Positions 38,512-57,940 of a DNA stretch of 64,000 bases are shown in pieces. The notes under the pieces were generated by a model. The model worked only from the letters and a program-made list of their open reading frames with translations, was not told the origin of the DNA and searched no databases. The translations under genes and the position numbers were made by a program. The stretch comes from Eledone cirrhosa (taxonomy: Eukaryota). Each line of letters begins with the position of its first letter. The stretch's first letter is position 1. The stretch lies in the NCBI GenBank assembly GCA_964016885.1, contig OZ024740.1, forward strand, positions 243,784,001 to 243,848,000, written 5' to 3'.

Positions 38512-38604
38512 ACGTATCTGAGGAACTTGCGAATCCAGAGTCAGGTTCAATCCACAAACAGAACGCACCTCGAGCTGTTCACCGGAGAAACTATTGTAAT
38601 ACGT
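38512..38604 (+). ncRNA. Hammerhead-like motif with a 62-nt domain at stem II (F1)
   Basis: ACGUAU-CUGAGGA-[62 nt]-GAAA-CUAUUG-UA-AUACGU; homologous to 57274-57371. Confidence 0.68.
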
Positions 38605-39829
38605 AATAAATTGTGTTCCGATGCATCACTGATTCTTCGTTTTCCATTTTACACACACACACACACACACACACACACACACACAAACAAACACACAATC
38701 ACACACACACACACATATATATATATATATATATGTGTGTGTGTGTGTGGGGGGGGGTGTTCGAATAGTTTGTTTACTTGAATGCATTCTCGGAATTCAG
38801 AGAACTTGATATTAATGACGCTTTTTGTATAGAGTTCCGCGTACGTCATCAACGGTATTCATAGTAGCAAACGATAAGACAAAGCAAAGTAATTAGAATA
38901 GAATAGAACAAATGAAATATATTAGACACATTTGTATGCTATTAGTACTGGCAGGGAACTCATTTCTAGAAACAAAATAATTCCATAAAACAAAACAAAA
39001 ACAGATTAAAGATTTCCTGAACTCAACAACACTGCATTCACCAACATAGACACAGTAGTAGTATGTATATTCAATAAAATAAGTATAGCGGCATCTAAAA
39101 AAAAACACACATCCCACAAGACAAGATAAAAATAGTACAAACAGAATTGCATACCAACTTATATCAGAAGCTTTAGGTATGCATTAGAATCTGCACCAGC
39201 CACTGAATACAAGCTAGTTTTTGATAAAGAAGAACCCACCTCCAGTCCACACTCTACTTCAACGCTCCACTCATTCCCCCCTCTATTCACACTATAAACC
39301 TCCACTCACACTCCTCTCCAACCTCCACTCACACACCTCTCCAACCTCCACTCACATACCACTCACCCTCCACTCCAAACCCCCAATCGCACTCTGTCAC
39401 CAGGGCTGGACTTTCACTTGCTCAGGCTCTAAGCTATATGAAAATTCTCTAAAAAAATTCGAGTAAGTTAAAAAAAAAAAATCATATATGATTATACGGG
39501 GTCGATAAAATAAAGTACCAGTAATACACTGATAATTGCTGGCCTTGTGCCTAAAGTAGAAACAATTATTATTATTGTATATTAATGTTAAGGATAAATA
39601 ATAAATCATATATATATATAAATATACATATACATATATATATATACATACCCCCCACATATATATATATATACATATACATACCCCCACACACACATAT
39701 ATATATATTATATAATAAACAACTATAATTATTCCATGGAATAATTATATTGTGTTGTTTATTACATAATTAAATAGCTCTGTATTATACATAGAGCACT
39801 TTTTTCCTTTACATTATCCACGGAATTAT

Positions 39830-40700
39830 TTGAACGTAAATTACTGCGGGTGTGTTATACTGTTGTTGAAGGGGACAAGCTTCAGGCCTTCGACAAGAGT
39901 ATCCTGGTGGGGTGCTGCTCTTGGGATGCTTTTGCCGAAGGCCTGAAGCTTTCCCCTTTAACAACAATGTAACACACCCGCTGTAATTTACGAAGCTGTG
40001 GTCACTTCTAACCGACCAAATCAACAACAAGAGGCTAAATCCTACGTAGGTATGGCGGAGGGCGAGTTTAAGGAACGCTTCCTGAAGCATCAGTCGACCT
40101 TCAGATACCCGAACAAACGATCATCCACGAAACTCGCAAGCCACGTATGGTCCCTCAAGGACACAGGCGTAGATTACTCCATCCAATGGAAAGTTATTAC
40201 TAAGTCTAAGCCATACGGATATGAGAATCCGTCTTGTAGGCTGTGCATTGAAGAAAGAGTCAATATCCTGAGAAGGATACGTAATAGCGCTTGTCTAAAT
40301 TGAAGGAATGAACATGTTTCGCGTTGTCCATACGCCTGGAAACACCTGTTACGTAATTACAAAGCTCCAAATTGACTTACATGAACAATCTATAATATTC
40401 TGAACAGAATAACACGAGTAATATATAATTATTCCGGGCATCCAGAGTTATCTCCATAACATCGATCGATCGTGGGGTTATCTCCCCTTTGGGAAGTGAC
40501 TGTTTCTGCACATGCGTATTCGTAGAGCTGTTTTTCCTTTTCCGTACAACCTCATTTAAACCGAGCTGATGATCCGAATAAGGTGAAACAATTGTTCTCG
40601 GTAACGGTGAACTAACTGTTGTGGAACTACTTTTACCAAACTCGTCCCACGGACTGAGTGCTCTACTACTATAGATATAACCCACCAGTATTCTACTATT
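39830..40700 (+). mobile_element. 5'-truncated Naiad-type PLE (GIY-YIG plus 3' region) with a short 5' fold-back
   Basis: VIYEAVV..SYVGMAEGEFKERFLKHQSTF..STKLASHVWSLKD..CRLCIEE; 39833-39904 is an inverted copy of 39924-39992. Confidence 0.87.
40560..40602 (+). ncRNA. Type I minimal hammerhead ribozyme (G1)
   Basis: ACCGAG-CUGAUGA-U CC gaauaa GG U-GAAA-CAAUUG-UU-CUCGGU; perfect 6-bp stem I. Confidence 0.85.
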
Positions 40701-55980: not shown

Positions 55981-56719
55981 ATATATATATATATATATAT
56001 ATATATATATATATATATATATATGTATATATATATATATATAATATATACTAGCAGAAAAACCACACCCCGGATCGTTTTCTGCTAGCATGTGTAGTGT
56101 GTATATTGATATTATACGCAAATATATATACATGTAGATATGATACATCAAATAAAACCGTAATTGATAATATACATAGAAATTGAGCGAAGACTACGTT
56201 ACACTGTCTTACGTAATCAGTAACGTAATCCATGATACATTAAAAAAAGACGATATTATATATAAACTTCATTAGGAGAAAATTAGTAACAGAAAATTAG
56301 TATGTTTATTTAAGCGATCGCCAACCGGAACTGTTGACATTTCAGAAATTTTAAAGAAGTGAATCTTTAAATAAACAAAATATATTTAATCATTAGCCAC
56401 GAAATTTAGTAGATAAATTATGTAATATTCATTCATTATTTATTCAAAGTACCAGTAATGCACTGGATTATTGCTGGCCTTGTGCCAAAAGTAGAAACAA
56501 TTATTTATTCAAAGTAATCCAACTTATTTTACTAATGGGATAAACAATTATAAACCGTACGCAGTCCCGCGCTCCTTACTTTATTATAGTTTATATATAT
56601 ATATATATATATATATATCACGATAGATTAACGGAGCCATATATATATATGTATATATATATATATATATATATATATATATATATATATATATATATAT
56701 ATATATACACACGTATATA

Positions 56720-57940
56720 TAAATAATAGTAATAGTAATAATAATAAATGTGAAGACTAAAACCCGAAGAGGGCTCGATAAGGATAATATATATATATAA
56801 ACATATATAAAACCGTAGTTTCACAAGATCCCGTTAAGGGTGAAAGCAGCGATTCTCTGCTTAAACTTTAATCTGTAATTTTAATAAATAAAAAAATATA
56901 TATATAATATATATATATATATATATATATATATATATATATATATATATATATATATATATATATATATATATATATATATATATATATATATATATAT
57001 ATATATATATATATATATATATATAACTGTAATATTATAATTAGTATACTTCATTCACTCTTTTGCAATATAAATACAGATATCTTGGTATTTGTGTTTC
57101 ATCATATATATTAGTTTTTATATATATATATATATATATATATATATATATATATATATATATATATATATATATATATATATATATATATATATATATA
57201 TATATTAGTTTATAAATATATATATATATATATATATATATATATATATATATAAATTTGCTTCGTAGAATCAAGACGTATCTGAGGACCTTACGATTTT
57301 CAGAGTCAGGTTCGATCATGATATCGATCGTGCCTCGAGCTGCTCGCCAGAGAAACGATTGTAATATGTCTAATAAATTCCATTCGTCGCAACACTGATT
57401 CTCTTTTTTTTGTGTGATATCATACTCTGCTCTATGAGAGCATCGAGGGCTCAAACTGCCTACCGTATACGGACGCTTTAAGCATCCGACACCAATTATA
57501 TATATATATATATATATATATATATATATATATATATATATATATCATAAATCATGTCTTTAGAATCATCTGATGATTCTAAAGACATGATTTATGATAT
57601 AATGCTCTGATTTTTTGATTTTAATTTATTAATTCTTCATAGAGCTTAAAAGTGAACAGTTGCAACATATATATATCTTTAATTTAATTTTAATTTTATG
57701 TATATGAGAACCCTTATATATATATATATATATATATATTTTTTTTTATTTATTAAAATTTCAGATTAAAGTTTAAGCAAATAATCGCTGCTTTCACCCT
57801 TAACGGGATCTTCTGAAACTACGGTTTTATATATGTTTATATATATATATTATACTTATCGAGCCCTCTTCGGGTTTTAGTCTTCACATTTATTATTATT
57901 ACTATTACTATTAATATTATTATTATTATTATTATTATTA
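56720..57940. mobile_element. Inverted pair of short PLE-derived units carrying CAGAAGA-family motifs (B5 56817-56867 +, B6 57770-57820 -)
   Basis: 56720-56890 is the reverse complement of ~57745-57940; homologous to 2640-2800. Confidence 0.75.
57274..57371 (+). ncRNA. Hammerhead-like motif with a 63-nt domain at stem II (F2)
   Basis: AGACGUAU-CUGAGGA-[63 nt]-GAAA-CGAUUG-UA-AUAUGUCU. Confidence 0.68.

Follow-up and report, generated by a model that had tools for sequence, protein, structure and literature searches.

A 64,000-nucleotide (nt) stretch of the Eledone cirrhosa genome (NCBI GenBank assembly GCA_964016885.1, contig OZ024740.1, positions 243,784,001 to 243,848,000 of the forward strand; hereafter the window, numbered from its first letter) contains two diverged copies of a hammerhead ribozyme motif belonging to a family that lies in the terminal repeats of a Penelope-like element (PLE). 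On balance, and with modest confidence, we favour the reading that this is a type I hammerhead whose stem II is a single interrupted hairpin of 60–63 nt, that it probably cuts slowly and in dependence on a dimer or a protein, and that a module within the long arm is a putative binding or docking site. The mode of cutting is proposed because of data on other families (PMC4209133; PMC11167929), and the role of the module because it is constant in unpaired and bulged positions.

Stem II is predicted to form one long, unbranched helix

Each window copy heads its own high-copy subfamily, A (the copy at 38 kb) and B (the copy at 57 kb), in a genome of 3.0 Gb that is rich in microsatellites, which takes both motifs well past a chance occurrence. 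A first look gave 2,464 candidates for A and 1,992 for B, of which 40 each were scored, and searches with diverged copies recovered the subfamilies C, D, E and F. The collection was assembled by searching with DNA, protein and sequence patterns, and further subfamilies may exist; the top 25–30 copies of each subfamily were analysed, and divergence figures describe these best matches rather than whole families. Family E is the youngest (median divergence 0.000 among 25 top copies). A 27-mer of subfamily B, taken downstream of the cut site, had 839 exact matches (reversed control, 0), and together with the matches of E (400) and F (132) the exact motif matches of the three subfamilies number at least 1,371 in the one genome. 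A run on a second organism (four contigs, low depth) yielded too little to claim a wider distribution, and contigs from three runs of unknown kind contributed nothing about expression or cleavage. Rfam matched no hammerhead model in the window at E values up to 1, giving only microsatellite-driven noise of the microRNA type, and none at the gathering score in six near-majority loci; microsatellites dominated the output when a repeat finder was applied to the window.

Single-sequence folding of the six subfamily majority inserts (60–63 nt) gave one unbranched hairpin in each case. Ten natural copies, six of them near the majority sequence and four of them diverged single copies, were aligned with MAFFT without regard to structure; from this alignment RNAalifold returned the same helix with 20 pairs, nine of them with two-sided change. 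Across the whole hammerhead model 14 of 34 pairs showed two-sided change, 85.4% of cells were paired against 28–40% for slid partners, and the covariation score was reached by none of 500 shuffles. Stems I, II and III, the three helices around the core, were also recovered by RNAalifold from the six majority sequences, in a type I arrangement with the ends joined in stem I, in line with the hammerhead fold recognised in the initial annotation. Stem III is self-complementary in all six subfamilies, with self-duplex energies from -2.9 to -13.3 kcal/mol and two-sided change in two of its four self-pairs; most subfamily A copies (24 of 30) have it as a perfect palindrome.

Read outwards from the core, stem II opens with a mismatch at 10.1-11.1; two pairs then lead to a pyrimidine.C mismatch and five pairs to a bulge of 2–3 nt. 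Three pairs separate this bulge from an internal loop of purines, which is followed by two pairs, a bulge of one base, four more pairs and a further mismatch, beyond which a helix of 4–5 bp carries a loop of 6–8 nt. Two-sided changes flank the central module on both sides and extend into the upper helix (alignment columns 56-79 and 57-78). When contacts between stem I and stem II were sought, no loop was present near the core, and the pyrimidine.C mismatch was found to recur at the fourth stem II position.

The insert had been described beforehand as conserved and structured, which these results bear out, and as branched or switchable, which folding, RNAalifold and pair counts do not; they give one unbranched helix. 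Under the switchable model GAGUCAG would pair with CUG(C/U)UC, and CCUC would sequester the core by pairing with it. Both alternative pairings are still complementary in 82% of cells, because both of their sides are conserved, and lower-energy folds of B and E do involve the core. Two-sided change was found in 0 of 5 pairs of the CCUC pairing and in 0 of 6 pairs of the GAGUCAG pairing, however, the predicted probability of core pairing with CCUC was at most 0.009 in all six subfamilies, and the central pair of that helix is broken in 5 of the 10 aligned copies. We regard a branched or switchable domain of this kind as highly improbable; misfolding, or switching of another kind, may nonetheless occur, given the complementarity of these cells and the lower-energy folds predicted for B and E.

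The two copies in the window

Direct inspection of the sequence and a descriptor scan of the window located both motifs, with the following parts:

38512..38517, forward strand: copy 1, stem I 5' strand (sequence and covariation)
38518..38524, forward strand: copy 1, core CUGAGGA, C3 to A9 (sequence)
38525..38586, forward strand: copy 1, long unbranched stem II of 62 nt, beginning with an A.A mismatch (folding, RNAalifold and pair counts)
38536..38544, forward strand: copy 1, 5' strand of the conserved module (mean pairwise identity 0.81 over six subfamilies)
38569..38577, forward strand: copy 1, 3' strand of the conserved module (mean pairwise identity 0.93 over six subfamilies)
38587..38598, forward strand: copy 1, GAAA, palindromic stem III and GUA, with the predicted cut after 38598 (sequence)
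38599..38610, forward strand: copy 1, 3' strand of stem I, then AAUAAA (sequence and alignment)
57274..57281, forward strand: copy 2, stem I 5' strand (sequence)
57282..57288, forward strand: copy 2, core CUGAGGA (sequence)
57289..57351, forward strand: copy 2, long unbranched stem II of 63 nt, beginning with a C.A mismatch (folding and pair counts)
57301-57309 and 57334-57342, forward strand: copy 2, module strands (subfamily identity)
57352..57363, forward strand: copy 2, GAAA, self-complementary stem III and GUA, with the predicted cut after 57363
57364..57377, forward strand: copy 2, 3' strand of stem I, then AAUAAA (sequence)

Most of the motif had been recognised from these two copies: stem I, CUGAGGA, inserts of 62 and 63 nt with shared blocks, GAAA, a near-palindromic stem III, GUA and the missing 10.1-11.1 pair. 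The proposal that stem II had been replaced did not hold, since the helix is present in the majority sequences and is broken by private mutations of the window copies, at 38549, 38563 and 38581 in copy 1 and at 57293 and 57343 in copy 2, which is why no stem II was seen in them. What had been taken for a variable middle is, in the majority sequences, the apical helix and its loop. Compared with shuffled sequences, the window inserts had z scores of +0.38 and -0.91, whereas two near-majority genomic copies had -2.94 and -2.07. The stem III palindrome of copy 1 also carries one private change (38592).

The hexamer 3' of stem I is AAUAAA in five subfamilies and AUUAAA in C, and a U-rich stretch lies 25–35 nt beyond it. 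AAUAAA and AUUAAA are the two common poly(A) hexamers, and a poly(A) signal in a 5' leader would require suppression. The hexamer is bracketed by a predicted stem I extension that reaches from about -115 to +50. This extension folds in all six subfamilies under constraint and was unrecovered by RNAalifold, and is a lead only. A small hairpin was seen by eye in an optional tail of about 80 nt (57420-57496, and at loci of A, B, D and F), its loop and stem letters differing between A and B.

A conserved module in an arm of constant length

Conservation of the central internal-loop module matches that of the catalytic core. Mean pairwise identity across the six subfamilies was 0.65 for the stem I 5' strand plus core and 0.79 from GAAA to H17, compared with the module values of 0.81 and 0.93 listed above, and it fell to 0.50 in basal stem II, 0.44 in loop II and 0.42 in the 5' flank (3' flank, 0.68). 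The two conserved blocks lie directly opposite each other in the predicted fold. The module may resemble SECIS, kink-turn and sarcin-ricin loops.

In a tree of N-terminal plus reverse transcriptase (RT) sequence (26 rows, midpoint root, rows covering fewer than 230 residues dropped; no open reading frame [ORF] of C among the rows), families A, B, D, E and F, all with the long arm, formed one clade (19 rows, 100/100), and families with arms of 31–33 nt were its sister (4 rows, 100/100). The long-arm clade was unresolved in a tree of the shorter N-terminal region (81/7).

These data bear on the view that the long arm is a neutral extension, or that its blocks act in DNA, for example as a downstream promoter element, with the ribozyme needing the basal helix only. 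Stem II length does vary freely among the other families in the window (12 to 36 nt), the module lies about 50–95 nt downstream of the predicted transcription start (see below), and its pairs are without covariation. A length held at 60–63 nt across families that are about 52% identical in the N-terminal protein, two-sided changes on both sides of the module, and conserved blocks that face each other exactly in the fold are hard to reconcile with that view, which we consider distinctly unlikely. A coding role of the insert was also considered and rejected, because its length changes by a single base between subfamilies A and B and the ATG is situated about 175 nt downstream.

The parent element and its protein

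The parent is a Penelope-like element with protein motifs of the Hydra clade, although the trees hold sequences of this genome alone. A full-length copy (L089) reads, in order, hammerhead, ATG, RT, a low-complexity stretch, a linker, a GIY-YIG domain, about 1.2 kb of non-coding sequence and a second hammerhead, so that the motif sits in both terminal repeats, with the ATG about 175 nt 3' of the cut site; the location in a PLE that had been suggested from the window copies is thereby borne out. A family E copy (L195) has an intact single ORF of 858 amino acids, in which a motif scan found LWR at 37, DKT at 125, CxCx5C at 709, CxxC at 807 and CxH at 834. The C-terminal GIY-YIG endonuclease is present, with a weak Pfam match (E 0.0017, below the curated cut-off), and an endonuclease-coding stretch lies 1–2 kb upstream of the A hammerheads in many of 20 fetched loci.

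Elements of the Hydra clade are described as having DKT instead of DKG, an RWK-type motif, a CxCx5C linker and CxxC/CxH around conserved E and N (Craig et al. 2021, PMC8557442); all of these protein features are found in the L195 ORF, and insertion is into (TA)n, as for that clade. Size differs: Hydra-clade elements are generally under 3 kb (PMC8557442), whereas L089 spans about 4.6 kb because of the low-complexity stretch in its ORF and its long non-coding part. An assignment to the Neptune clade, which had been based on a resemblance, was dropped after the motif comparison. Copies stop at two 3' points, with or without the tail of about 80 nt, and are often paired with an inverted truncated partner; these two-point ends, tails, (TA)n sites and inverted partners match descriptions of PLEs (PMC8557442; PMC11167929). 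In five full-length-type copies (L175, L180, L181, L192 and L199) the leader is swapped for an inverted terminal-repeat copy just upstream of the ORF.

In the window, the parent element that the initial annotation had suggested seeking upstream of 38180 is the subfamily A element, of which a non-coding copy reaches back to 36588:

36588..38651, forward strand: subfamily A element, decayed and 5'-truncated, non-coding part only (blastn with L089, tblastn with the L195 ORF)
36588-36801, 36902-37215 and 37948-38651, forward strand: the pieces of this copy (blastn with full-length L089)
57256..57496, forward strand: subfamily B solo terminal-repeat copy including the tail of about 80 nt, flanked by (TA)n runs

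A tblastn search of the window with the intact L195 ORF found no ORF of subfamily A's family within 36588..38651. ORF fragments of more distant Penelope-like families lie at 4519-5861 and 39953-40327 on the forward strand and at 3742-4158 and 10412-10803 on the reverse strand, and are 30–37% identical to the family E protein over long matches. Broken protease, RT and integrase frames of the long terminal repeat (LTR) retrotransposon type were seen at L068:3790-6900 and are unrelated to the hammerhead element.

Insertion ends and a proposed life cycle

The 5' ends of subfamily B insertions were sampled from 70 loci among the first 100 of the 839 27-mer matches, giving 79 distinct copies on one contig. 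Four ends lie upstream of -120, 31 at -120 to -101, 42 are spread over -100 to -6, two lie at +2 and none falls at the cut site. Copies of D (17 of 24) and F (6 of 24) also have a boundary at -111 to -117. We considered splicing as the origin of the -114 boundary and rejected it, as the junctions show no shared upstream exon. These ends point to a transcription start near -114 and to insertions derived from uncut RNA, in agreement with PMC11167929; cleavage may still occur, since cut RNA may simply go uncopied. CCAAT-like and TGACGT-like boxes, as expected for an internal promoter, were noted about 60–100 nt upstream of this predicted start in A, D, E and F (window ~38395-38425).

Metazoan PLE hammerheads are reported to be inactive as monomers and weak as dimers (PMC4209133), and cleavage of an Anolis PLE hammerhead needs protein, uncut RNA being the dominant insertion template (PMC11167929). 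A comparable cycle can be proposed here. Transcription would start about 114 nt upstream of the cut site, the long arm would fold, and two RNAs would pair through the self-complementary stem III and so complete the active site, or alternatively the element's protein would assist; a slow cut after GUA or GUC would follow. The likeliest binder of the module may be the RT-endonuclease protein of the element, which is our guess. Reverse transcription starting from about +50 or +130 downstream would copy a short uncut leader and so give rise to many solo copies.

Catalytic core and likelihood of cleavage

The core elements CUGANGA, GAAA and UH were found in 23 of 30 copies of A, 28 of 30 of B and 23 of 30 of C, both window copies included, and every one of the six majority sequences retains C3, G5, G8, A9, GAAA, the A15.1-U16.1 pair and an H17 base. 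At 10.1-11.1, 27 of 30 A copies have A.A and all 30 B copies have C.A, while C has G-U and E has G-C. This pair is usual and not absolute, a natural U.U mismatch being on record (PMC3088659); its absence is a known trait of the Hydra clade, since by our count U.U or U.C occupies the position in 15 of the 25 families listed (PMC8557442 File S2), though there without purines.

Several observations weigh against a cutting ribozyme with a long folded arm. The CUGANGA core is missing from half of the subfamilies: D has one extra base (25 of 25 copies), E has U6 in 98, C6 in 2 and U4C in 98 of the first 100 of 400 matches, and F combines U4C with either A6 (41) or U6 (59) among the first 100 of its 132 matches, by our count. 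In published work A6C and an insertion after A6 gave low activity (PMC3088659). The 10.1-11.1 pair is missing in 8 of the 10 aligned copies, and the stem III self-duplex of D is weak (-2.9 kcal/mol). The hammerhead fold lies 4.7 (B) and 9.2 (E) kcal/mol above the predicted minimum, with a mean stem II pair probability of 0.43 in B and 0.26 in E. The shuffle controls ignore the relatedness of the copies, and the module gives no covariation evidence because its pairs are mostly invariant. The -114 boundary was unseen in the scored A and E copies, for both of which the query reached further upstream. In Anolis, finally, the ORF begins at stem II and 5' truncation to +20 still allowed insertion (PMC11167929), so that stem II need not be a protein site.

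Such points raise the alternative of a hammerhead-shaped scaffold with no need of catalysis, in which fold and module serve as a signal for protein recognition, dimerisation and copying of the RNA while the core drifts. It draws on the fixation of A6U in the youngest family, E, where none of the 100 matches has A and the ORF is intact, on its recurrence in F, on the lack of insertions beginning at the cut site among the 79 B copies, and on a module whose conservation equals or exceeds that of the core region. In the RT tree E and F are not sisters, and A6U therefore probably arose twice, or may have spread through exchange between repeats. The scaffold view does not account for the core bases kept in all six majority sequences; U4C and A6U recur jointly, with C7, a pattern that suggests a tolerated variant core more than random decay, and E combines the canonical G10.1-C11.1 pair with the strongest stem III palindrome (-13.3 kcal/mol). 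We consider a scaffold of this kind rather unlikely, and retain as the preferred interpretation a hammerhead that probably cuts slowly with dimer or protein assistance.

Comparison with described hammerheads

The family shares with the Hydra-clade PLE hammerheads of Craig et al. (2021, PMC8557442) the type I fold, the terminal repeat location, the short self-complementary stem III, (TA)n insertion, the 10.1-11.1 mismatch and the DKT, CxCx5C, CxxC and CxH motifs. It differs in that the stem II regions listed for that clade are 12–26 nt by our count, compared with 60–63 nt and an internal module here; that the mismatch is U.U or U.C there and A.A, C.A or A.C here; that no Hydra row of File S2 has the core CCGUCGA, CCGACGA or CUGAAAGA; and in the size of the element, as given above.

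With the minimal hammerheads of metazoan PLEs (Cervera and de la Pena 2014, PMC4209133) it has in common the location in a pseudo-LTR (pLTR), here of an element with RT and GIY-YIG domains, widespread solo copies, a palindromic 15.2-16.2 region (the short self-complementary stem III, weakest in D), a larger-than-usual helix II and many families per genome. Helix II has 6–8 bp and a conserved G10.1-C11.1 there, whereas here about 20 pairs are interrupted by mismatches and bulges, and G10.1-C11.1 is present in E only. The Anolis Poseidon element PAc (Frangieh et al. 2024, PMC11167929) is alike in the nearness of the hammerhead to the ORF start, the uncut RNA template, two internal starts of reverse transcription, and ends with and without a tail; its ORF starts inside stem II and the cut falls 26 nt after the ATG, whereas here the cut precedes the ATG.

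The nearest precedent for a long stem II in PLE hammerheads is provided by the spike-moss elements PLE-X1_sMoe and PLE-X1_sTam, in which the core strands are about 54 and 48 nt apart by our count and both of which are marked as deviating from the canonical structure (PMC8557442 File S2). They belong to a different, endonuclease-less PLE group and are single families, and the File S2 table reports neither covariation nor a conserved module for them. The parts of the literature covered, PMC6765202 and bioRxiv 10.64898/2026.07.22.740005 among them, contain no covarying 60-nt stem II in PLE hammerheads and no CCGUCGA core; Lunse et al. 2017, the PMC4209133 supplements and Repbase lay outside the search and may hold the family. 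Within that scope no published description of the long-arm architecture was found, in line with the suggestion in the initial annotation that it was possibly undescribed. What appears to be new is that the long arm marks one clade, that the module is conserved like the core, and that the core itself is changed (A6U with U4C).

The descriptor scan of the window found seven other hammerhead-like motifs, with 12–36 nt between the core and GAAA. Other hammerhead motifs noted in the window, with stem II regions of 12–36 nt, lie at 1826, 7430 and 9016 on the reverse strand, at 12062, 21918, 40566 and 43004 on the forward strand, and at ~60044-60181 (an inverted pair) and ~63192-63261 (reverse strand). 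A pyrimidine mismatch occupies the fourth stem II position in several of them (C.C at 12062, 9016 and 21918; C.U at 43004), and the motif at 40566 has the U.U mismatch at 10.1-11.1 that is typical of the Hydra clade. A minimal-hammerhead-like motif at 37810-37838 on the forward strand (CUGAAGA, a stem II region of 13 nt, GAAACGUC), whose stem I looks decayed, lies within the stretch interrupting the subfamily A copy. Long, near-perfect inverted repeats were noted at 45650-45820 and 60030-60195, the second consisting of head-to-head short hammerhead repeats.

Implications for Penelope-like elements

The class described here, with its exact matches by the hundred in several subfamilies of one genome, is missed by Rfam models and short-loop descriptors, and it adds A6U with U4C as candidate natural variants of the hammerhead core. 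The role of the hammerhead in Penelope-like elements has been called unclear (PMC8557442), and cleavage was dispensable in vitro (PMC11167929). The long-arm clade is a natural series for testing that role: one fold, three or four cores and a removable long arm, together with a sister clade with an arm of half the length and a young family with an intact ORF. One tentative and rather doubtful reading of this series is that a hammerhead has turned into a recognition element, in which the 60-nt arm and its module would serve the element's protein for binding and dimerising the RNA while the core was rewritten (to CCGUCGA, twice) or retired. If true, it would show why hammerheads are kept in Penelope-like elements.

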